64,000 bases of DNA. Origin: Fidelibacterota bacterium. Its GTDB lineage: Bacteria > Fidelibacterota > Marinisomatia > Marinisomatales > Marinisomataceae. Below, piece after piece: positions 13,895 to 31,556 of this stretch. A model generated the notes under the pieces. The model was not told the origin of the DNA, did no database searches, and worked only from the letters and a program-made list of their open reading frames with translations. How positions within the stretch are numbered: the first letter of the stretch is position 1; each line of letters starts with the position of its first letter. The DNA lies in NCBI GenBank assembly GCA_965212055.1, contig OZ243041.1, positions 883,736 through 947,735 on the forward strand, written 5' to 3'. Made by a program: the position numbers and the translations under genes.

Positions 13895-16546
13895 TTATAA
13901 GTTACTCTTATCTATATTAACAACTAAATCACTTGCAATACAAGACCAATCGTAATCTTTTGCTATCTTACTTGATTGTTTTCCCATTTGTTTAATTAGA
14001 TCTTTATTATCAATCAAATTTTGTATAACACTTGTAAGTTCTCTATCGTTATTTCTTTCAAAGATAACACCATTAACCTGATCTTGTATACAATCTTTAG
14101 AACCAACATTATTAGAAACAATAACAGGTAATCCAGATGCCATAGCTTCTAAAACTACTAACCCAAATGATTCATGTATAGAAGGAAGAACAAAAAGTGA
14201 TGCTTGAGAATAATTTTGTAGTGGAGAACCAGATTCAACTAATACAGAAATACCTTTCTCCATTAATTTATCTTTATATTCATTAAATATATCTTCAAAA
14301 TATTGTGTTATATGACCATTAAATATAAGATTGATTTTATCAGAGGAGTTTATATTAAGCATTGCTTTGAGTAAAAGATGTACGCCTTTTTCCGGATTGA
14401 CATTCCCTACAAATAAAATATTAAACTCTTTATTATTTTTTCTCTTATCTAAACTATCATATTTTTGGAAATCTACACCTAGTGCGCAATTAATAAGTTT
14501 TTCTTTTTTTATATTATTAACTAAATAAGATTTTTCAACTAACGATGAAATACACCAAATTTTGTCTACTATTTTAATCTCTGCTAATTGTCTTTGTATT
14601 CTTTCAGCAAGTATGGGTTCATTTTTCAAACCTATTCTTTTATATTCTTTTTCTAAATAGTCTTTTTGTACATTTGGATGCATCCATTGAGAATGTAGAA
14701 TTGCTTTTCCACCACGTTTTTTCACTTCTTCAAATGAGTATAAAGACATTCCATTGCGTCCAATAATAATTGTATCACTATTAACTTCTATTATATTTTG
14801 TTGAATAAGATTTGTTAATTTTTTATCATAATAGATAAATTCGTCTAATAGTTGTTGATTAACACTGGTAGAAAATACTATTCTTTTAAATTTATTATAA
14901 CCTCTTATAGCAAATTCAAAAATCTTATTGGTACCAATATTATGATATTTACAAATTGATATATCAACTTCTCCCCTGCCAACCCATACAATATTATAAC
15001 CTAATTTTTTAAGATTTTTAACAAGCATAATGTCAGTACTTTTAGTTGCACCCAACAGATTAACATTATGTGAACCTGAATAAATGATAAAATTCATTTT
15101 CCTCTGATTTGAAGAATTGTTGGATAAAATATTAAGATTTGAAGAAGACTCAGAATTTTGATATTCATTTAAAATAATTTGAATATCTTTCAAATAAGTT
15201 ATATACAACATTATGAATAATACGATGAGCAATAATAGCTTATGAATCAAAGATAGTGTAAATAAATTGTTGGCTCCCCATAATAACAGACCCGTGAAGA
15301 AGAGTAGAAATAATATCTTTGTAAAATATGATAGATAACCTTTATGAATCAACTTCTTAACATAAACCTGGTAAGTGTAGAAAACTGATATATTCCCTAC
15401 TATAAAAACTGCAGCTGCAGCACCTGTAGTACCATATAAATCTGTTAAGAAATATAGCAAAGGTATTAATGCTAATAAATTTATTATTGCTACTTCCATA
15501 TCAACTTTTGTGTAACCATATGTATGTAATAATGGAGCAACATTGCTTGATACAGCTTTAATGAGTACAACCACAATAAATATTTGTAGTAAAAGTGATG
15601 ATGGGAGCCATTTTTCACCATATACAAAGAGTATAATTTCTTGAGAAAATAATAAAATTATAAATACTGGAATAAAATAAATAATTGCTGTTATTACCGT
15701 AATCATATCAAATAATTTAATTTGATCTTTAAGATTATCAAGCTTAGCAAGAGTTGGAAAAAGAACTTTATTAATGGCAGCTCGAATAAAAAATAAATAA
15801 TGACTGATTTGGAATGCCATCCAGTAAAATCCTAACGATTTTTCATCTATCAACAAATCCACAAGGTAATAATCAATATTGGTAGATATAAAAACAAGAA
15901 TTGTACTAATCAATAATGGATATCCAAAAACCATGGATTCTCTAAATATTTTATAATCTATACGGAGCTTGGGTCTATATGGCAAAATAAACCAGATTAA
16001 TACTGATTCTACAAGTGAAATAGTTACTTTCCACCACACTAAACTCCATATACCATAATTGTTATATGCCAATGTAATTCCAACAATGCCACCAACGACA
16101 TGAGATACCAACATTGGCATATTTGCTTTAACAAATGATAATTCTTTTTCAAAAAGTGCTTTTGGTTTCACAAGCGGGTTATACAACAATACTATGCAAA
16201 AGATTTGGATATATTCTGTAAGGTGAGATTTATCAATCCATGCTAAAATTGTTGGTAACAAGAAAAGAGAAAATAATATTAACAACAACCCCCATATTAA
16301 TTCAACGGTAAAAATTGTATCTAATATTTTATAAGGATTCTTTTTTTCTTTAATAAGAAATTTATCTCCATGAAGACTCCCAAAACTATTAAGAAACATC
16401 GCAACTAGGCTAATAAAAGCAAAAACACCAAATTCCGATGGCTCCAAAATTCTAGCAAGAGTAACTTGGACAGTAAAAAGTGTAATAACCTGCAATATGG
16501 TTATTACACTTACTGTGATTCCTCCAGAAATCAGTCTTTTTAACAC
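13895..16546 (-). CDS. fusion protein: Wzx-type polysaccharide flippase (MOP superfamily) + family 4 glycosyltransferase
   Basis: 883 aa in a single uninterrupted frame. Residues 1 to about 470 are polytopic (12 or more hydrophobic helices, typical Wzx). A Ser/Asn linker follows. Residues 484-883 (from the Met at 15097) are a GT-B domain with EKGVHLLLKAM and PSIHESFGLVVLEAMASGLPVIVSN. Confidence 0.75.
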   Translation of the reverse strand: MLKRLISGGITVSVITILQVITLFTVQVTLARILEPSEFGVFAFISLVAMFLNSFGSLHGDKFLIKEKKNPYKILDTIFTVELIWGLLLILFSLFLLPTILAWIDKSHLTEYIQIFCIVLLYNPLVKPKALFEKELSFVKANMPMLVSHVVGGIVGITLAYNNYGIWSLVWWKVTISLVESVLIWFILPYRPKLRIDYKIFRESMVFGYPLLISTILVFISTNIDYYLVDLLIDEKSLGFYWMAFQISHYLFFIRAAINKVLFPTLAKLDNLKDQIKLFDMITVITAIIYFIPVFIILLFSQEIILFVYGEKWLPSSLLLQIFIVVVLIKAVSSNVAPLLHTYGYTKVDMEVAIINLLALIPLLYFLTDLYGTTGAAAAVFIVGNISVFYTYQVYVKKLIHKGYLSYFTKILFLLFFTGLLLWGANNLFTLSLIHKLLLLIVLFIMLYITYLKDIQIILNEYQNSESSSNLNILSNNSSNQRKMNFIIYSGSHNVNLLGATKSTDIMLVKNLKKLGYNIVWVGRGEVDISICKYHNIGTNKIFEFAIRGYNKFKRIVFSTSVNQQLLDEFIYYDKKLTNLIQQNIIEVNSDTIIIGRNGMSLYSFEEVKKRGGKAILHSQWMHPNVQKDYLEKEYKRIGLKNEPILAERIQRQLAEIKIVDKIWCISSLVEKSYLVNNIKKEKLINCALGVDFQKYDSLDKRKNNKEFNILFVGNVNPEKGVHLLLKAMLNINSSDKINLIFNGHITQYFEDIFNEYKDKLMEKGISVLVESGSPLQNYSQASLFVLPSIHESFGLVVLEAMASGLPVIVSNNVGSKDCIQDQVNGVIFERNNDRELTSVIQNLIDNKDLIKQMGKQSSKIAKDYDWSCIASDLVVNIDKSNL

Positions 16547-16606: not shown

Positions 16607-17320
16607 TTATAACACAAAATAATATAATTTTTTATAATAATCTAAAGCTTCATCATAAATAGAATGGTACTCTTTTGGTACATTATTAGATCTATTTTCA
16701 AATTTTTCAAATTTGGTAGTATTAATAATATTGTTATACCAATGTTTCCACCAAATACCATCAGTAGAATATGGACCTTTCTTCCAATTAAGCATTTTTT
16801 TATCAAACTTAATATTCAAATGATTGCACCAATGATTTAAGATACTTTCAGGATTGTTTAATAAAGTAGAAACATCAATAACTAAAATATTTTTTTTGAA
16901 TTTTTGCAAATATTTAATTAATTCATATTGCTGAGGATAACCAAGTTCACTGATATGATTTAATTTGTTTTTTTTAATATAAGAGCTAATCACATCTTTT
17001 GGGTGTCTTATCAAAAATGAATTATGGAAATCTTTTATCCATTCAATATTTTCTAAGTTGATTAAATGGTGGGCCATATGTTTTTGATACCATATATTTT
17101 TTGATTGAGGAATTTCTTTAGTAATAGCATTGACTACTGAATCATATGAATTTGGATAATAATTAATAATTTCTTCATGCATTGGATGTTTTAGTTTTTT
17201 TTCTTTTAAATAATATGCATAAAAAGGCTCATCAGTCACAAAGGTATCGTCTCTTGATGACCAAGAACGCATTAATGCAGTAGAAATATTCCTAGGACCT
17301 GACCAACAAGCAATTTTCAT
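16607..17320 (-). CDS. sulfotransferase-like P-loop protein
   Basis: 237 aa. N-terminal WSGPRNISTALMR resembles the 5'-phosphosulfate-binding loop, and LIRHPKDVISSY resembles the R-x-P-x-D-x3-S 3'-phosphate-binding motif of PAPS sulfotransferases. An APS kinase lies in the same gene run. Confidence 0.5.
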   Translation of the reverse strand: MKIACWSGPRNISTALMRSWSSRDDTFVTDEPFYAYYLKEKKLKHPMHEEIINYYPNSYDSVVNAITKEIPQSKNIWYQKHMAHHLINLENIEWIKDFHNSFLIRHPKDVISSYIKKNKLNHISELGYPQQYELIKYLQKFKKNILVIDVSTLLNNPESILNHWCNHLNIKFDKKMLNWKKGPYSTDGIWWKHWYNNIINTTKFEKFENRSNNVPKEYHSIYDEALDYYKKLYYFVL

Positions 17321-18231
17321 AATTTAGATTTTATATAATTTTCAATATCTTGAAGATATAATGTTCTTATCTTATTTGTGATGGAGTCCTTATTTGTTGA
17401 TTCTAAAGATTTATCTTCTAAGATTGAAACTGGTACAATGCCTCCAAACGTTCCAGTAACAAATGCTTCTTGACAATCTTCTATATCTTTAAAAATAAAA
17501 TTTTTTTTAGAAATCGGAATATTATTTATTTTGCATAATTCTATTGTTTTTGATCGAGTAATTCCATTGAGACAATATTTCCCTTTCGAAGTAATAATTT
17601 CATTATTCTTAATGAAAAAAAGGTTAGTTGAATTACATGTGCTAATAAAACCATGCATATCATTCATAATTCCTTCATCATAGCCAAGCTTATTTGCTTC
17701 TATACTCGCTAAAATACAATTTAATTTACTTAATGTATTATACTGTGGATTCAGTATTTCATTATTTGGTCTAATATTTTTGACTCTTCCAATTTTAATA
17801 CCATTCTTATAGGTACTAGAATCTGCTTTCTTATATTCAGGAATAATAACAAAGTTTATTGGACCCACATTTGCATTAGGATTTTGATAAGGAGTAATTT
17901 TATTCCCACGAGAAACTACTAAACGAATATGTACATCATCTTTCATATTATTTTTTGTTAACGTTTTATTGATTTCATTTATGATATACTCTTTTTCAAA
18001 ACCAATATGGAGTGAAATCCCTTTTGCGCTTTCATAGAGACGATCTAGGTGCTCTTCAATATGTATCAAAACAGATTGATGAAATCTAATTCCTTCCCAG
18101 ATTCCATCTCCAAGTAAAAAACCACTATCAAAAACTGATATTTTTGCTTCGTTTCTTTTGAAAAATTCTCCATTAATGTTTATTAAGACAGCTTCATTTT
18201 TTGGATTTACTATGAAAGAATGTGTACTCAT
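17317..18231 (-). CDS. class IV (fold type IV) PLP aminotransferase (BCAT / D-amino-acid aminotransferase / ADC lyase family)
   Basis: The start is taken at MSTHSF (18231) because the upstream ATG lies inside the tRNA. EAKISVFDSGFLLGDGIWEGIRF and a C-terminal EAFVTGTFGGIVPV-type block are typical. Confidence 0.8.
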   Translation of the reverse strand: MSTHSFIVNPKNEAVLININGEFFKRNEAKISVFDSGFLLGDGIWEGIRFHQSVLIHIEEHLDRLYESAKGISLHIGFEKEYIINEINKTLTKNNMKDDVHIRLVVSRGNKITPYQNPNANVGPINFVIIPEYKKADSSTYKNGIKIGRVKNIRPNNEILNPQYNTLSKLNCILASIEANKLGYDEGIMNDMHGFISTCNSTNLFFIKNNEIITSKGKYCLNGITRSKTIELCKINNIPISKKNFIFKDIEDCQEAFVTGTFGGIVPVSILEDKSLESTNKDSITNKIRTLYLQDIENYIKSKL

Positions 18232-18234
18232 GAG

Positions 18235-18306
18235 TGGGCCCACAGGGATTTGAACCCCGAACCTGCGGATTATGAGTCCGTTGCTCTACCATTGAGCTAT
18301 GGGCCC
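18235..18306 (-). tRNA. tRNA with CAU anticodon (elongator Met or lysidine-modified Ile2; not initiator)
   Basis: The reverse complement GGGCCCAUAGCUCAAUGGUAGAGCAACGGACUCAUAAUCCGCAGGUUCGGGGUUCAAAUCCCUGUGGGCCCA folds by hand. Elements are a 7-bp acceptor stem, D stem GCUC/GAGC, anticodon loop CUCAUAA, and T arm CGGGG-UUCAAAU-CCCUG. A G1-C72 pair argues against initiator. CCA is not encoded. Confidence 0.92.
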
Positions 18307-18317
18307 TTATCTAAAAA

Positions 18318-18659
18318 TTATTTTCTAAACAATTTTTTTCTTATTTTTGTAGCAGAAATTTTTCCTATACTATCTGGTGGAATATGTTCAATGATATCAT
18401 AACCTACCCCACGCCCATAATTTACAGATTCAATATCAGGTATAATAATAACTTTGATTCTATTACTTTTAACCAAATCTTGAAGTTTATTTTCAATATT
18501 GTTTTTTACATCTTCAGGATCATAAGGATTTTTATCATTTGTACTTACTTCTCTTATACAAATAAGAACATTTTTCCCTTCATTTAGTCGTTGATCAATT
18601 AACCAACGATGTCCATCATGCCACGGTTGCCATCTTCCTATAAACATTGAGTATTTCAT
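18318..18659 (-). CDS. minimal HxGH-type nucleotidylyltransferase (cytidylyl/adenylyltransferase superfamily)
   Basis: 113 aa carrying both superfamily motifs, GRWQPWHDGH and ISATKIRKK. The start overlaps the 3' end of the APS kinase gene. Substrate unknown. Confidence 0.6.
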   Translation of the reverse strand: MKYSMFIGRWQPWHDGHRWLIDQRLNEGKNVLICIREVSTNDKNPYDPEDVKNNIENKLQDLVKSNRIKVIIIPDIESVNYGRGVGYDIIEHIPPDSIGKISATKIRKKLFRK

Positions 18660-19077
18660 TTGTACATTCCTCTATATCTAATTTGCCTGTATCAATTGAT
18701 AAATGTTTTTCTAAAGGGATTTCATAGTCTTTAGCAAAAAAATTTTCTCTTCCTCTTATTTCTGTAGTATGCAAATAAACTTCCAGAAAAGGAAATTCAC
18801 TCTTTAATTCATTTCTAAGAAATCTATATGGGGCAACAATAGATACTACACAAAGATATCCCTTACTGCTTAAAAAACGAATAATTGATATCGCAGTAGA
18901 AATATTTTTAATTCTCCCTTCTTTAGAATAATCTTTATTTCTATTAATATTTCTTAAATCATCACCATCTAAATTAATTATTTTAAGATATTCATCATCT
19001 TGTTTTAAAGATTTAATAATCGAATTAGCTAGGGTTGTTTTCCCGCTACCCGGCTGACCTGTAAGCCAAATAATCAT
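18616..19077 (-). CDS. cysC: adenylylsulfate (APS) kinase, short form
   Basis: 153 aa. IIWLTGQPGSGKTTLA P-loop, LDGDDLRN and SKEGRIKNI...VVSIVAPYRFLR match CysC blocks. Confidence 0.82.
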   Translation of the reverse strand: MIIWLTGQPGSGKTTLANSIIKSLKQDDEYLKIINLDGDDLRNINRNKDYSKEGRIKNISTAISIIRFLSSKGYLCVVSIVAPYRFLRNELKSEFPFLEVYLHTTEIRGRENFFAKDYEIPLEKHLSIDTGKLDIEECTNEILNVYRKMATVA

Positions 19078-26444: not shown

Positions 26445-27387
26445 ATAAAAAATAAAGACTAGTGATAAGAACGCCCAAGTTTAAACCTGCACGATAAGGC
26501 AAACAATAATACAAGCAAAATATATAACCAATCATATTCATTCTATCTTCTCCAACAAAATATAGAGCTATAAATAGCGGTAAAAAATAAATTAGAGTCT
26601 CTAATCTGTCTTTTGTATAATATAAAGCTATAAGAAGAAATATTGTCATCCTTAAAAAATCAAATATACTTCGATCGCCACCATATGCTGTTATTTTAAA
26701 AAAAAGGTAAGGTAGTCCAGAAATTTGAGTGGAGTTTATAGCAAAGAATACAAACACTATCATTGGTAACACAAATAATAATGACCGTTTAAATTGTAAT
26801 TTAAATAATAAAGGCTTGACTTCATTAATGAATAACTGAAGTGCTCTACCTAAACATAAGATTAGTATCTGCAAATGAGAAAAAATAGCTAAACCAAAGA
26901 AAAAGAAAGAAAGAACATATTTTTTTCTAAAAAGAAAAAATAACAAGAAAAAGATAAAACCAATTTTTAACCTCTCTCCTGTAAAAAATAATACATATAA
27001 ATAAAAATTTGTAAGAATAAAAAAAGATGTTACTAGAAAATTAACTTTAAGATTATCAAAAACTTTTATTAAAAGCCCAGCAAGAAATGTATTACACATA
27101 GACAGAAAAAAGATTCTATCTATTCCTAGATTGCTTGCTACCCAAACAAAAATAAAATGAACAAATTCTACTGTGGTAATAATATAATTATAGAGTTGAT
27201 ATGCCCTAGCAATATCAAGGTCAGCTACTCCGTTATATATTGTTCTATATCCATTGTTATCTCCCCCTACATATAAATTCCCTAGAATCAATGAAATAAT
27301 AAACACAAAAAAAAGCAGTGTTATTCTCAAAAAAGTATTTTTATTAAAAGATGGTAGATTTAAAAAAATTTTAGTGTTTATCATCAT
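26380..27387 (-). CDS. polytopic membrane protein, EpsG/Wzy-like repeat-unit polymerase candidate
   Basis: 335 aa with about 10 hydrophobic helices and no soluble domain. It is the only polymerase-like membrane protein in a locus that has a Wzx flippase. The family was not rigorously recognised. Confidence 0.45.
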   Translation of the reverse strand: MMINTKIFLNLPSFNKNTFLRITLLFFVFIISLILGNLYVGGDNNGYRTIYNGVADLDIARAYQLYNYIITTVEFVHFIFVWVASNLGIDRIFFLSMCNTFLAGLLIKVFDNLKVNFLVTSFFILTNFYLYVLFFTGERLKIGFIFFLLFFLFRKKYVLSFFFFGLAIFSHLQILILCLGRALQLFINEVKPLLFKLQFKRSLLFVLPMIVFVFFAINSTQISGLPYLFFKITAYGGDRSIFDFLRMTIFLLIALYYTKDRLETLIYFLPLFIALYFVGEDRMNMIGYIFCLYYCLPYRAGLNLGVLITSLYFLYANIDFISKIILYGNGFPPQP

Positions 27388-28604
27388 AAAGAAAATGCCT
27401 TCAAAAGATTTGATATGTGTAAATTTCTATAAGATTGGGGACGATGAGAATCTGCAAGAAGGAAAAACCCTGAACTAATTTTATCTTTTTTAAGATATCC
27501 ATGCATACCAGCTTTTAATTTACTGTCATTGTGAAAAAAATCTGGACTTACTTGAACACCTTTTTTAGCCCACCAAACAATATCAGCAATATCTTTCACA
27601 GGCGGTAATCCTTCGTTTTCACAATCCTGATTATTAAGAAAATATCCTTTATCTTTTAATTCTTTATTAGAAAATAGTTTCTGATGAAAATTCTTCAATT
27701 TTTCTTTATTATCTAATTTCCACCATATTCTTAACATTGTTGAATCTAAAAAATAATAAAAATCTCTCCCTAATTTAAGATTCAAATTCTTTGTAATAGA
27801 TTCAATGATATTTTTGATATTGATACCATGATTAACATGTTCCATACCATGATCTCCCAAAAAAGAAATATCACACTTTTCATGATGGTATTCCATACAT
27901 GTATGATAGAAATTTTTTAGTTTTATATCTATATCTTCAAGCCCTTTAATTAATTCTTGTGAATGTGGCCCAAATTTATGGCCAAGTACATCTGCTGTAC
28001 TTATATATACTGGAATCAATGTCTGCTTATAATCAGAAAGCTTATTTATAAGGGTTTTAAGTCGTGAAGAATCAGTACCAAAAGAAGCACTAGATAATGA
28101 TGTAAAATATTCCCAGTTAATTGTATATCCTGCATGAATATGTTCATATAATAAACCTGATTTAATCTGTTTCGAATATTCTTCAAAATCAATTGAATCT
28201 TCTGTAAGAATAACTTTGTCTAAAATATTTAAAGGAATTCTCTGTGGATACATACTAGGGGACGATTTATTGAGAGACACTTGCCACAAAAAACGTCTGA
28301 TAATTTTTTGAAAAAATTGATTTTTTTCAAAAAAACTAAGTACAGGTATTATCCAATTTGGAAGCCATGAATATGGTCGAATATTATTCTTAGATTCAGT
28401 ATCAATCGTAATAGCATTAACAAAACCAGTTTCAGAAGGTTTTAAGCTAAAAAAAATCTCCGAACGTTCACAAAAACCACTCGATATCTCTAAATTTTTT
28501 ATATAAATACCATCATGAATTTTAGATGATAACCAAGGCATATATTTAACATGATCTGATCTAAGAGCATCAAGAACTATAAGGTAATGATTTTGTAAGT
28601 TCAT
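27384..28604 (-). CDS. alkaline-phosphatase-fold metalloenzyme (type I phosphodiesterase/nucleotide pyrophosphatase/phosphotransferase family)
   Basis: 406 aa. LIVLDALRSDH, ADVLGHKFGPHSQE and LGDHGMEH correspond to the metal-ligand blocks of the PF01663-type family. No signal peptide. Confidence 0.6.
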   Translation of the reverse strand: MNLQNHYLIVLDALRSDHVKYMPWLSSKIHDGIYIKNLEISSGFCERSEIFFSLKPSETGFVNAITIDTESKNNIRPYSWLPNWIIPVLSFFEKNQFFQKIIRRFLWQVSLNKSSPSMYPQRIPLNILDKVILTEDSIDFEEYSKQIKSGLLYEHIHAGYTINWEYFTSLSSASFGTDSSRLKTLINKLSDYKQTLIPVYISTADVLGHKFGPHSQELIKGLEDIDIKLKNFYHTCMEYHHEKCDISFLGDHGMEHVNHGINIKNIIESITKNLNLKLGRDFYYFLDSTMLRIWWKLDNKEKLKNFHQKLFSNKELKDKGYFLNNQDCENEGLPPVKDIADIVWWAKKGVQVSPDFFHNDSKLKAGMHGYLKKDKISSGFFLLADSHRPQSYRNLHISNLLKAFSL

Positions 28605-28605
28605 A

Positions 28606-29385
28606 TTAAAAATAATATTGATTTAAAAATTTATTTTTATATTCTTTCTGTGAGAAATCTTTTAAATAATCCTCAATAATATCAACTTTTTTTTGATTAT
28701 TAATACCGCTTACACATTTATATTCACAGAAAGGAAATCCAATAACATTCTTGCTTTTTGTATTGCAAAATGGAATAAATTTTACAAAATCAATTTCTTT
28801 TTTATTCTGCAATTTTTTATTAGCTATAAAATCAGATAATAATGGATATACCTCGCTATCTAAGATAAAACAAAGACAATCTTGTTCAGCCCAACCAGAA
28901 TATGGTTTACCTTCATTCGAATGAAACACCTCAGAATATTTTCCTTCACTATCTCTCAAAAATCCAACATAAGGATTTTTTTTATAACGTGTTGGCATTG
29001 CAATGAGTGGATTAAATTTTTCATATAATATGGTAGAAAAAAATATATAACTAGAAGGAATAAGTGCTAAATCACCCCACAATAAAATGGTATCATACTC
29101 TAAAGCTAAATCATTTTTGATTGCATCCAAACATACCGCTGTACCTTGTATTTGTTCAGGATGGAGTTCAATTAGATTGATTTTTTTATTTAAACCTTCT
29201 ATTTGTTCAAAATAATGCTTATCGAGAGAATTAATTACTATATTGATGGAAACAATATTTGATATTGCTTTTTCAATCACATTTAACAAGTTAATAATAA
29301 TAGATTTTTGACCATTTGGATAGTCAATTTTAAGGAGAGGTTTTGGATAATTGAGATTCATTCTTTCTCCCTTTCCTGCAGCCAT
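28606..29385 (-). CDS. sugar/phospho-compound nucleotidyltransferase (GlmU-N/MobA/CofC-like fold)
   Basis: 259 aa from the only ATG. MAAGKGERM is the signature xAAGxGxR loop, with GTAVCL and WGDLALI. The conserved beta-strand QIVI lies upstream of the ATG, so the true start may be non-canonical. Confidence 0.65.
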   Translation of the reverse strand: MAAGKGERMNLNYPKPLLKIDYPNGQKSIIINLLNVIEKAISNIVSINIVINSLDKHYFEQIEGLNKKINLIELHPEQIQGTAVCLDAIKNDLALEYDTILLWGDLALIPSSYIFFSTILYEKFNPLIAMPTRYKKNPYVGFLRDSEGKYSEVFHSNEGKPYSGWAEQDCLCFILDSEVYPLLSDFIANKKLQNKKEIDFVKFIPFCNTKSKNVIGFPFCEYKCVSGINNQKKVDIIEDYLKDFSQKEYKNKFLNQYYF

Positions 29386-29525
29386 AATTACTATTTGATA
29401 TTGTTTTTTATTGATTGAAGTATTTTCTAAATAGTAATTAAATAATTCTTTTCTATACTGTGAAAGTTCAAACTTTTTAGAAGAAAAAGGATTAAAGATT
29501 AAAGTACTATCTCCTGATTTTTTAA

Positions 29526-30284
29526 TTACAATATCTCCTTTAATGATTCCACAGAAAATGTAGGAGAAGGAGAATTTTTAACTAAATCAGATTTTGAAGA
29601 AATAAGTACAGATTGGCATTTAAGATTCTTACTGAGTTCTATGTCAGTCCAAGGATTGTCTCCTATCACTATCAATTTTTCATCTTTTTTTACTTTTATC
29701 ATTTCTCTGCTGAGATTAGGTTTTCCAAATTCTTTTGATAGCTTTTTTTTCTGTAAAACACCTGATAAATTCAATAAACCGTCCAAAATTAAGGTAACAG
29801 TAAAATTAAATGGTGGTTCGGGTGAAATTCTATCAGGATTTCCTAATAAAATATCTGCATCTGTTTTTATAATTAAGTTTAATGCTGATTCTGTTCTTTT
29901 AATCCATTCACTATCAACCAAAGAAGTAAAAATAATTGCATCAATATCTTCTTCTGAGATATCATTCACTATATTGCCTACAAAAGGTTTGATTTTATTG
30001 GCAACATTTTCTTGTCCGTAATGAAAAATAGTTTTGTAAGATTTTTTTTCTAAAAATTTTAATAATAAATCTAATGATGTAATAACATCGGGTATTGGTA
30101 CATTAAAAATGTTAAATAATTCCTCTTTTAATTCTAAGCCTGTTTTAGATCCAATATTTGAAAAAATAATTATTTTTTGATAATAATTTTTTAAGAATTC
30201 TTTTGAACCATTGAGAGGTTCTTTTTTATTAGAATATAATGTTCCACTAACATCTAATAAAATTTTATCAAATTTGGATAACAT
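29526..30284 (-). CDS. HAD-superfamily hydrolase, subfamily IIA-like
   Basis: 252 aa. Motif I variant ILLDVSGTL, FSNIGSK, and motif IV VIGDNPWTDIELSKN (the GDxxxTDI of NagD-type HAD-IIA). Confidence 0.6.
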   Translation of the reverse strand: MLSKFDKILLDVSGTLYSNKKEPLNGSKEFLKNYYQKIIIFSNIGSKTGLELKEELFNIFNVPIPDVITSLDLLLKFLEKKSYKTIFHYGQENVANKIKPFVGNIVNDISEEDIDAIIFTSLVDSEWIKRTESALNLIIKTDADILLGNPDRISPEPPFNFTVTLILDGLLNLSGVLQKKKLSKEFGKPNLSREMIKVKKDEKLIVIGDNPWTDIELSKNLKCQSVLISSKSDLVKNSPSPTFSVESLKEIL

Positions 30285-30290
30285 CTTACA

Positions 30291-31556
30291 TTATTTATCA
30301 TTTACTATTCTTAAAATAGTTTTTAAGACATTTTTTCCATTATGAGCAGAAGGATTTAATGGATCAGAAAAATTACCTTTCACTATTTTTAACCAAGGAT
30401 ATTTATTCATAATTACATTTTCATCAAAATTAATCGATTTTGATTCTTTAGATTCTGAGGTTGCATCATCTATAATTAGGTGAGTAAGTAAATCTTTTTT
30501 ATTAATACTCTTATTACTTGATCTATTTAAATATTTATATAAATCTTTTACTAGATCTGAAACATATAAAAAATTATTGGTTTCTTTCTTCAAGTTTGCA
30601 ATCATCACTTTTGGATTCTCATTTTGTTTAATAAGATTTGCTACCCCTTTTGTTTCAAGGCTTGGAAGGATACTAGAATATGGAGTTCCAGAACCATAAA
30701 CAATGATATCGCTGTTAAGTATTTTTTCTTTAATATCTTCATTATAAATAGGAATACTCCTCAATGACTCAAGAAAACTAATTTTATCATCTATTTCTAT
30801 TGAAGATAATTTTCTAATTTGATTCATTGTGATAGGATTTGTCATCTGATAGATATCTTTTATGCTATCTGTAGTGCGAGTTAATACCACAGATGCTTCA
30901 TTAGGTAAAAGGGTACCATTTTTCAGTAACCCACTTAGAAATCTAACAGAATTTGTATTAGAATATATTGCAATTTTACTATTCAGATTACAAAATTTAG
31001 AAAAAGCATTAGTAGCTTTATTAAAGTCAAGATTATTTTCTACCAATAGAGCTCCAAATAAAATATTACCAATTTTGAAATCTTCTATATCAATAATTTC
31101 ATCTCTGTTTTGATAAAAATAATTGAAAAAAATAATAAATTTTTTCAAAATTTGTTTTCTTGTTTTATCTGGAATTTGTGAAAGTGCAGATAAATATTTA
31201 GGTAAAGAATTTTTATATAGCATTTTGTGCAGATTACGATATAATAATAACCTTTCTTCAAAATTATCAACCATCGGAAATCTGGCTTCTAATGCGTTTA
31301 TTAGTTTTTCATTTGGAGAAAGAGAAAGGATTGCTTTTAAAAAATCACTTATTCCATGAGCTTTATAATGAAATAATCTTCTAATCTCTCCTGTAGATGC
31401 ACCATCATCTAAACCATTAATTATTACTGAAAGTTCATTGATGTCGTTCATTTGTTTTTTCATTGCAAAAAACAAATTTTTATTCCCTCTTCCTCCTGAA
31501 AATATTATAACTTTTGGTTTATATTTATTTTTCATTCTTTTTTCCCCATTTAGCAA
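30291..31556 (-). CDS. CofD/YvcK-family (UPF0052) protein, extended form
   Basis: 421 aa. PKVIIFSGGRGNKNL, INGLDDGASTGEIRR and SDIIVYGSGTPYSSILPSL align by eye to B. subtilis YvcK blocks PKVVIIGGGTGLSVL, VTVADDGGSSGRLRN and ADVIVIGPGSLYTSVLPNL. The likely start is the Met at 31535. Confidence 0.7.
   Translation of the reverse strand: MLNGEKRMKNKYKPKVIIFSGGRGNKNLFFAMKKQMNDINELSVIINGLDDGASTGEIRRLFHYKAHGISDFLKAILSLSPNEKLINALEARFPMVDNFEERLLLYRNLHKMLYKNSLPKYLSALSQIPDKTRKQILKKFIIFFNYFYQNRDEIIDIEDFKIGNILFGALLVENNLDFNKATNAFSKFCNLNSKIAIYSNTNSVRFLSGLLKNGTLLPNEASVVLTRTTDSIKDIYQMTNPITMNQIRKLSSIEIDDKISFLESLRSIPIYNEDIKEKILNSDIIVYGSGTPYSSILPSLETKGVANLIKQNENPKVMIANLKKETNNFLYVSDLVKDLYKYLNRSSNKSINKKDLLTHLIIDDATSESKESKSINFDENVIMNKYPWLKIVKGNFSDPLNPSAHNGKNVLKTILRIVNDK

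Follow-up and report, generated by a model that had tools for sequence, protein, structure and literature searches.

What reaction could a sulfotransferase-like protein and an aminotransferase-like protein share when their genes overlap by a few nucleotides within a polysaccharide gene run? The question is raised by a locus of a Fidelibacterota bacterium (assembly GCA_965212055.1), located in a stretch of 64,000 nucleotides (nt) of contig OZ243041.1 (positions 883,736 to 947,735) that was analysed as a whole and is called here the window. An initial annotation of this locus, made from the letters of the DNA, proposed a sulfation dependent on 3'-phosphoadenosine 5'-phosphosulfate (PAPS) and linked to a transamination, with a sulfated amino sugar or amino-acid substituent of the glycan as a possible product. 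The two proteins, designated ST5 and AT4, are encoded as follows, their junction included:

16607..17320, minus strand: ST5, a Sulfotransfer_5 (PF19798) protein of 237 amino acids (aa), assigned by its Pfam match
17317..18231, minus strand: AT4, a class IV (fold type IV) aminotransferase-like protein of 304 aa (PF01063)
17317..17320, minus strand: the ATGA stop/start overlap between AT4 and ST5, read from the sequence

The answer put forward here, with a probability of roughly 70%, is that ST5 and a class IV protein deprived of its catalytic lysine form a conserved module, which would depend on PAPS, would not be a canonical transaminase and would not be specific to glycans. The pair is best read as self-contained and co-inherited, being two proteins in bacteria and a single fused polypeptide in eukaryotes. 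From its adjacency across at least five phyla and from the eukaryotic fusion, it is therefore probably a small-metabolite enzyme system rather than a glycan-decorating step.

Conservation of the pair in bacteria and its fusion in eukaryotes

Homologous loci were gathered by scanning one genome per species, which yielded 80 loci from Marinimicrobia, Alphaproteobacteria (including HIMB59-type), Verrucomicrobia (many of them Udaeobacter), Planctomycetes and Chloroflexi. Conservation of the adjacency was a check proposed with the initial annotation, and a homologue of AT4 indeed adjoins that of ST5 on the same strand in 76 of these loci, over at least five phyla and in either order, three of the four remaining loci being at contig ends and the last one bearing a 3.5-kb insertion. 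The order AT4-ST5, usually with overlapping genes, is that of Marinimicrobia and Alphaproteobacteria, and the order ST5-AT4 that of Verrucomicrobia, Planctomycetes and Chloroflexi. Besides, the pairwise identities of ST5 homologues correlate with those of AT4 homologues (r = 0.93), and clustering of the neighbouring open reading frames (ORFs) leaves ST5 and AT4 as the only families shared between clades; no third partner conserved across phyla was found among the clustered neighbour ORFs, every other family being lineage-specific. Of note, some loci originate from records of metagenome-assembled genomes (MAGs) labelled Flavobacteriaceae, Legionellales and Gammaproteobacteria (L003, with 99% identity; L005 and L010, with the same synteny), which are probably binning or labelling errors.

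At the junction, the plus-strand letters t-c-a-t (17317-17320) correspond to the minus-strand ATG (17320-17318) overlapping the TGA (17319-17317), and the overlap of the aminotransferase-like stop with the next start, as initially described, is thus read directly in the sequence. Four-nucleotide gene overlaps are commonplace in bacteria and unremarkable alone. The junction is also tight in relatives, with -4 to +2 nt in most loci of Marinimicrobia and Alphaproteobacteria and extremes of -20 and +8 nt when ORFs are called from their first start. A promoter and terminator scan found no terminator downstream of ST5 before the following gene, and none of its signals exceeded those of shuffled sequence, the AT-rich DNA making such a scan uninformative.

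In eukaryotes, both domains belong to one polypeptide. The initial annotation pointed to plant proteins in which an N-terminal P-loop domain is fused to a class IV domain and suggested a Rosetta-stone relationship with the bacterial pair. When a concatenation of ST5 and AT4 was searched against 1.84 billion cluster representatives, the top matches were proteins of 518-646 aa with both halves collinear (e.g. residues 11-524 of P0124), and a Pfam scan of the long matches placed PF19798 at the N-terminus and PF01063 at the C-terminus in 10 out of 10. Both domains occur in 41 retrieved sequences, and the sources of the fusions include the choanoflagellates Diaphanoeca and Hartaetosiga as well as one MMETSP transcriptome. 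A search with the 559-aa plant fusion P0124 brought 120 plant proteins with both domains, mostly of 545-580 aa; the named ones, of about 555-560 aa, are called 'branched-chain-amino-acid aminotransferase-like protein 1/2', and the plant fusions across angiosperms are all at least 79% identical to P0124. These plant proteins are hence the branched-chain aminotransferase (BCAT)-like 1/2 proteins, with the architecture PF19798 plus PF01063, and the Rosetta-stone relationship is borne out by these collinear single polypeptides. Literature searches on the plant protein names returned omics lists only, with no reported function, and those for At5g27410 and At3g05190 returned nothing.

Some of the fusions are longer still. 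Several plant gene models (P0288, P0321 and others) append a FAM86/EEF2KMT methyltransferase domain (PF10294), and in a 1449-aa protein of Hartaetosiga balthica (P0132) a MAGUK-like guanylate-kinase domain and PDZ repeats are joined to the ST5-AT4 fusion. Both kinds of extension could be real fusions or merged neighbouring genes.

Outside Marinimicrobia, the neighbours of the pair comprise MetY, an MhpD-like hydratase, ABC transporters, an amino-acid permease and a SpoU methylase. In Alphaproteobacteria, a 266-aa homologue of the MhpD/HpaH/DmpH-like 2-oxo-enoate hydratases/decarboxylases, which scores under the curated cut-offs, is encoded by a gene overlapping the ST5 stop (L027:3705-7508 and 12 other loci), and the O-acetylhomoserine sulfhydrylase MetY is encoded directly upstream of AT4 in six loci. 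These hydratase and MetY neighbours may hint at the substrate class.

The class IV partner without its catalytic lysine

AT4 matches PF01063 (Aminotran_4) at 1.3e-40 in Pfam but stays under every NCBIfam equivalog or subfamily cut-off for BCATs, D-amino-acid transaminases (DAATs) and aminodeoxychorismate lyases (ADCLs), with best scores against cut-offs of 222.5/363 for PRK08320, 176.5/245.6 for ilvE_I, 142.2/277.5 for D_amino_aminoT and 97.2/176.9 for pabC. Gap-free HMMER alignments place its Asn165 opposite the Schiff-base lysine of the archaeal BCATs 5MQZ, 5CM0 and 5E25 (...NPQYNTLSKLNCIL... in AT4 vs. ...PPNIKSLNYLNNIL... in the BCATs), and its Lys169 occupies the position of the BCAT tyrosine contacting O3' of the cofactor. 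The residues dealing with the cofactor phosphate and pyridine nitrogen are kept, namely R64, E186, I224-T225-R226 and T259-G260-T261. The AlphaFold2 (AF2) model, with a mean predicted local distance difference test (pLDDT) score of 95.9, superposes in Foldseek on class IV structures with template-modelling (TM) scores of 0.83-0.94. Compared with the canonical BCAT IlvE, DAAT and ADCL (TM 0.83-0.88), AT4 thus has the same fold and shares the phosphate and pyridine-nitrogen residues but lacks the Schiff-base lysine, has the O3' tyrosine replaced, shows the changes F36->W and Y95->H and carries a new invariant K111.

The lysine is missing throughout the family. Among 70 full-length ST5-linked partners, the catalytic position is occupied by Asn in 43, by His in 27 and by Lys in none. 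K169 accompanies E186 in all Asn-type partners, and the His-type partners, a branch including plants, have L/M169 and D186; the ST5-AT4 fusions and the single-domain representatives are likewise devoid of the lysine. A signature made of W45, H101, K111 and N200, usually with C220, tracks this loss almost without exception, the canonical lysine-bearing representatives showing F/Y/G-S/S-T at the signature positions. The plant BCAT-like 1/2 proteins (Arabidopsis BCAL1/2 type) and the other eukaryotic fusions have the same PF19798 and PF01063 domains and the same ST5 motifs as the window's pair and likewise lack the lysine, with His at its position and Asp at the pyridine-nitrogen residue, as in Verrucomicrobia-type partners; unlike them, the pair of the window consists of separate, translationally coupled genes, AT4 then ST5, and is of the Asn type (N165/K169/E186).

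Because Asn165 replaces the Schiff-base lysine and Asn or His does so in all 70 partners, ordinary transamination by AT4 appears unlikely on sequence grounds. The sulfation 'linked to a transamination' of the initial annotation consequently loses its second half, to which the sub-cut-off NCBIfam scores also contribute. AT4 was considered as the cell's IlvE, DAAT or PabC and rejected in each role, the lysine being missing and the scores sub-threshold.

The closest solved structure and best match in the PDB (5e-66) is 7Z79, an 'aminotransferase-like protein from Variovorax paradoxus', with 36-37% identity to AT4, a TM score of 0.94 and a root-mean-square deviation of 1.3 Å. It shares with AT4 both the Asn at the catalytic-lysine position and the W/H/K signature, but it has Arg at the +4 position where AT4 has Lys; 9J32 is the N174K mutant of the same protein, i.e. 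with Lys at the catalytic position. Literature searches for 7Z79 and 9J32, the Variovorax protein and lysine-less class IV proteins found no functional description. Unlike AT4, a close relative from this 7Z79-like branch, the lysine-less P0134, is coupled not to ST5 but to an enolase-superfamily gene of acid-sugar-dehydratase-like type, which it overlaps by 4 nt (L083:3-2427); a gene for an AsnC-type regulator follows and no ST5 is present at this locus. Lysine-less class IV proteins can thus be paired with at least two different enzymes. Taken together, the contexts of the pair outside Marinimicrobia and that of the 7Z79-like branch hint at amino-acid or 2-oxo-acid chemistry.

Would such a protein still be an enzyme? 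The partner could be a ligand-binding, regulatory or scaffolding subunit, sensing for instance amino acids or B6 vitamers, with ST5 alone doing the chemistry. The catalytic lysine is indeed gone in every partner, the tyrosine contacting O3' is replaced too (position 169) and the depositors of the closest structure both chose the wording 'aminotransferase-like' and engineered N174K. Yet the cofactor-pocket residues are strictly conserved, and H101, K111, T113, N200 and C220 are invariant across phyla and eukaryotic fusions, a conservation that fits an active site better than a decayed one; besides, the coupling of the related lysine-less branch to an enolase-superfamily enzyme suggests that such proteins have their own catalytic role on 2-oxo or amino acids. 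A partner devoid of catalysis is thus unlikely.

Somewhat less likely again is a genuine aminotransferase dependent on pyridoxal 5'-phosphate (PLP) in which, for the Asn-type partners, Lys169 would have taken over from the lost lysine and ST5 would sulfate the free amino-acid product or substrate. Conservation of K169 in 43 out of 43 Asn-type partners is what makes this idea worth weighing, along with its location one helical turn past the canonical position, in place of the tyrosine adjoining the cofactor in BCATs, and with the other PLP-binding residues all being intact. Still, the His-type branch, plants included, has Leu at 169 and the 7Z79-like branch has Arg, so that K169 is not family-wide when the coupling to ST5 is, and AT4 remains under all the BCAT, DAAT and ADCL cut-offs.

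The glycan neighbourhood, the tRNA gene and the cysC-like gene

The third possibility is the one initially proposed, and it depends on what surrounds the pair. The features next to ST5 and AT4 in the window are:

18234..18306, minus strand: tRNA-Met(CAT) gene, from ARAGORN
18318..18659, minus strand: HxGH nucleotidyltransferase-like ORF of 113 aa (PF01467, 5.7e-6)
18616..19077, minus strand: short APS-kinase-like (cysC-like) ORF of 153 aa (PF01583, 5e-19), APS being adenosine 5'-phosphosulfate
13895..16546, minus strand: Polysacc_synt_3-GT4 fusion ORF of 883 aa, from domain assignments

The tRNA gene settles the start of AT4. The ORF list gives 17317..18243 with a GTG at 18243, which ARAGORN places inside tRNA-Met; since this GTG falls within the tRNA gene, the start is the ATG at 18231 (304 aa), as assumed in the initial annotation. 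Between the 3' end of tRNA-Met and this ATG lie 2 nt, a spacing too short for a ribosome-binding site of its own.

The cysC gene invoked as the source of PAPS, some 1.3 kb upstream, is at the announced distance from the ST5 start (about 0.4 kb upstream of AT4) and on the same strand, but it proves to be a short APS-kinase-like gene and is parted from the pair by tRNA-Met as well as by the 113-aa ORF. Its product is above the cut-off for PF01583, although over profile positions 4-110 of 152 only, and reaches 81.5 bits with TIGR00455, under the cut-off of 138.7. In the PDB it matches APS kinases only (best 1.5e-17), most matches covering residues 1 to about 105-115; the C-terminus (106-149) aligns very weakly to the best match, with some 15 kinase residues skipped. 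The 26 loci with M1-peptidase synteny count as Marinimicrobia-type; in about 18 of them, an APS-kinase-type gene lies no more than some 6 kb away from the pair. Availability of PAPS in Marinimicrobia is therewith plausible, and the 153-aa protein is a possible supplier of PAPS, peripheral to the pair. The HIMB59- and SAR11-type Alphaproteobacteria, for their part, are said to be without assimilatory sulfate reduction.

The 113-aa nucleotidyltransferase-like ORF is itself associated with this gene, the two overlapping by 44 nt and being kept as a gene pair in 17-18 Marinimicrobia loci; it is always beside an APS-kinase-type gene. Its significant PDB matches are nicotinamide mononucleotide adenylyltransferases (NMNATs) and low-complexity lectin matches. 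Because orthologues follow a full-length canonical APS kinase at L015:9349-10320 and L022:8565-9568 (PF01583 at 1e-67 and 2e-70), the 113-aa protein seems linked in function to APS kinase and might be a minimal sulfate adenylyltransferase.

Across Marinimicrobia, the stable order is tRNA-Met/AT4/ST5/M1 peptidase/Wzi, with tRNA-Met directly upstream of AT4 in eight of the nine loci checked (e.g. L001:7017-7091), and the glycan and APS-kinase genes move around. They form a block divergent from the pair in L001 and lie downstream of M1 or Wzi in L016, L020 and L024; in the window, the Polysacc_synt_3-GT4 fusion separates ST5 from M1. This 883-aa fusion associates a flippase-type Polysacc_synt_3 domain (residues 30-316) with a GT4 glycosyltransferase domain (residues 701-859), and similar fusions occur in L001 (798 aa) and L003. 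The variable glycan genes are found on the far side of tRNA-Met, as expected of an island inserted beside a tRNA gene, and the Marinimicrobia locus looks like a conserved core pair flanking such a variable island.

The glycan run of the window encodes Wzz-like, Wza-like, Polysacc_synt_3-GT4, GT2 and GT4 proteins together with nucleotide-sugar epimerases and reductases. Further along (27384..31556, minus strand) come genes for type I phosphodiesterase/nucleotide pyrophosphatase-like, HAD-like hydrolase and CofD-like (2-phospho-L-lactate transferase family) proteins, unusual components which suggest a phospho-linked substituent of the polysaccharide.

Could the pair decorate this polysaccharide, a class IV transaminase making an amino sugar or amino-acid substituent that ST5 would sulfate with cysC-derived PAPS, for a capsule or O-antigen? 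The pair does sit within a polysaccharide gene run, the APS-kinase-like gene lies on the same strand a short way upstream of AT4, and in Marinimicrobia many loci carry an APS-kinase-type gene along with the pair. AT4, however, lacks the Schiff-base lysine, and known sugar aminotransferases are of the fold type I DegT family, not class IV. Moreover, outside Marinimicrobia the pair has no glycan genes at its flanks, being kept without them in Alphaproteobacteria, Verrucomicrobia, Planctomycetes and Chloroflexi, and it is fused in plants and protists; in Marinimicrobia, it is fixed beside tRNA-Met and the M1 peptidase when the glycan genes change place and orientation. The link of the pair to glycans is weak, and a glycan substituent as its product, being hard to reconcile with such a distribution, is very unlikely.

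ST5, the chemistry it may serve and its meaning

That the 237-aa protein is sulfotransferase-like with PAPS-binding motifs was well seen in the initial annotation. Both peptides quoted there are present in its translation, WSGPRNISTALMR at residues 6-18 and LIRHPKDVISSY at residues 103-114, and the suggested profile search of 16607-17320 leads to a sulfotransferase family rather than to a kinase family, PF19798 (Sulfotransfer_5) being matched in Pfam at 7.8e-48 (163.3 bits for a cut-off of 23.2) over ST5 residues 1-230, i.e. profile positions 1-220 of 226. No NCBIfam model was matched by ST5. The 5'-phosphosulfate-binding (5'-PSB) loop reads WSGPRNISTA and the 3'-phosphate-binding (3'-PB) motif LIRHPKDVISS. 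A single-sequence search of the PDB with ST5 gave marginal matches only (0.011); with a profile built from 59 diverse homologues, the PDB matches were sulfotransferases only, the CurM sulfotransferase 4GBM at 4e-10 and the olefin-synthase (OLS) sulfotransferase 4GOX at 1.5e-7. In these alignments, the PSB-loop family consensus sgPRniSTAl (WSGPRNISTAL in the window) faces SSPRSGSTLL of CurM, PRniST corresponding to PRSGST, and the 3'-PB family consensus fliRdPkeviaS (FLIRHPKDVISS in the window) faces YLVRHPYSVIES of CurM, RdPkeviaS corresponding to RHPYSVIES. In the 59-homologue alignment, R23, D30, E31, K80, R105 and S113 are invariant and P9, R10, S13 and T14 nearly so, and the motifs are the same in the plant and choanoflagellate fusions. 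The AF2 model (pLDDT 94.8) returns sulfotransferases for all of its best 17 Foldseek matches (TM 0.43-0.61), among them CurM, tyrosylprotein sulfotransferases (TPST), OLS, 3-OST and cytosolic SULT, with the CurM sulfotransferase on top. ST5 thus belongs to the sulfotransferase fold, of which it is a genuine, if divergent, member. Its closest homologues come from marine metagenomes and Candidatus Marinimicrobia (SAR406), and its orthologues are named 'HAD family hydrolase' by NCBI.

As a kinase, ST5 was rejected, Walker A being absent, sulfotransferase motifs being present and kinase structures scoring worse. More generally, a TPST-like protein sulfotransferase, or a P-loop kinase or nucleotide-binding protein using a 3'-phosphorylated nucleotide other than PAPS, is the least probable alternative: TPST structures do rank second to ninth in Foldseek, with adenylate kinases among the matches, and literature searches gave no characterised PF19798 member, but the sequence-profile matches are the CurM and OLS sulfotransferases only, RxP....S at the 3'-PB site and PR..ST in the PSB loop are sulfotransferase signatures and not Walker A, and the kinase matches are weaker (E-values of at least 1.9e-4 vs. 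1.5e-6 for the best sulfotransferase).

The likeness to CurM and OLS bears on the chemistry. The sulfotransferases of these systems are 'activating' enzymes, which sulfate a hydroxyl to turn it into a leaving group, the logic of CurM being sulfation then elimination. Their PRxxST PSB loop and RxPxxVIxS 3'-PB motif (4GBM, 4GOX) align with those of ST5, which differs in being a free-standing protein of 237 aa, about 16% identical and with TM scores of just 0.53-0.61; in addition, they belong to polyketide synthases as domains and take as substrates beta-hydroxyacyl chains bound to an acyl carrier protein, and the partner of ST5 has a class IV fold and is not a thioesterase. For the other half of the pair, a parallel is offered by ColD and E1, fold type I 3-dehydratases dependent on pyridoxamine 5'-phosphate (PMP), in which His stands for the Schiff-base lysine and the hydroxyl next to a keto group is eliminated via a PMP ketimine. 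The His-type partners share the Lys-to-His replacement with them, as a mechanistic analogy with no homology claimed; ColD and E1 differ in their fold type, in their nucleotide-sugar substrates, in the absence of sulfation and, with respect to AT4, in having His and not Asn.

In the conserved-module reading favoured here, ST5 would use PAPS, which the nearby APS-kinase-type gene could supply in Marinimicrobia, to O-sulfonate a hydroxyl of a small soluble metabolite resembling an amino acid or a 2-oxo acid. The lysine-less partner would hold PLP or PMP non-covalently and would process the substrate or the sulfated product by some chemistry other than ping-pong transamination. Because the nearest sulfotransferases create leaving groups and the Lys-to-His partners resemble ColD/E1, the chemistry tentatively preferred by analogy is a sulfate-assisted elimination or replacement, which is rather doubtful as it stands. 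Similarly speculative is the wider proposal that the pair and the plant BCAT-like 1/2 proteins may represent a previously unrecognised enzyme class, in which a sulfate leaving group made by ST5 would be eliminated or replaced by the PMP/PLP-dependent partner.

Several observations weigh against this reading of the pair as a whole. The TM scores of ST5 to known sulfotransferases are just 0.45-0.61 in Foldseek, its use of PAPS is predicted from its motifs, and literature searches on PF19798/Sulfotransfer_5 returned only lists of Pfam families, with no characterised member. Among the remoter PF19798 members, some lack a class IV neighbour (L087), and the neighbours of the pair outside Marinimicrobia, being lineage-specific, are possibly coincidental. 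As for the partner, it could be a non-catalytic subunit, and Lys169, four residues past Asn165 in every Asn-type protein, is a candidate relocated Schiff-base lysine by which AT4 might be a true PLP enzyme or transaminase. Finally, the pair is always beside glycan genes in Marinimicrobia, so that a glycan-related role is possible in this lineage. In a plant sulfotransferase survey, PF19798 served as a search model and the BCAT-like proteins are undiscussed (PMC12506393).

Both domain families are known and databases contain the fusion architecture implicitly, but literature searches found no account of how operon and fusion relate or of a lysine lost throughout the family. The same two-domain unit is an operon in abundant and mostly uncultured oligotrophs, namely SAR406/Marinimicrobia, HIMB59-type Alphaproteobacteria and MAGs labelled Udaeobacter and Limnocylindria, and one highly conserved protein in angiosperms, with fusions in choanoflagellates and marine protists. 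The names given in databases, 'branched-chain aminotransferase(-like)' and 'HAD family hydrolase', are misleading in this respect: with no catalytic lysine in the partner and with its coupling to an activating-lineage sulfotransferase, the reaction is probably not a transamination. In metagenome-based reconstructions, the pair should consequently not be taken as a sign of sulfated polysaccharides or of branched-chain amino acid metabolism. With its two small soluble proteins, the bacterial operon offers a route to the function of the plant protein and possibly to a new use of sulfation in primary metabolism. If the elimination chemistry proved true, a pathway of sulfation-driven C-O bond cleavage would be conserved from streamlined marine bacteria to land plants.

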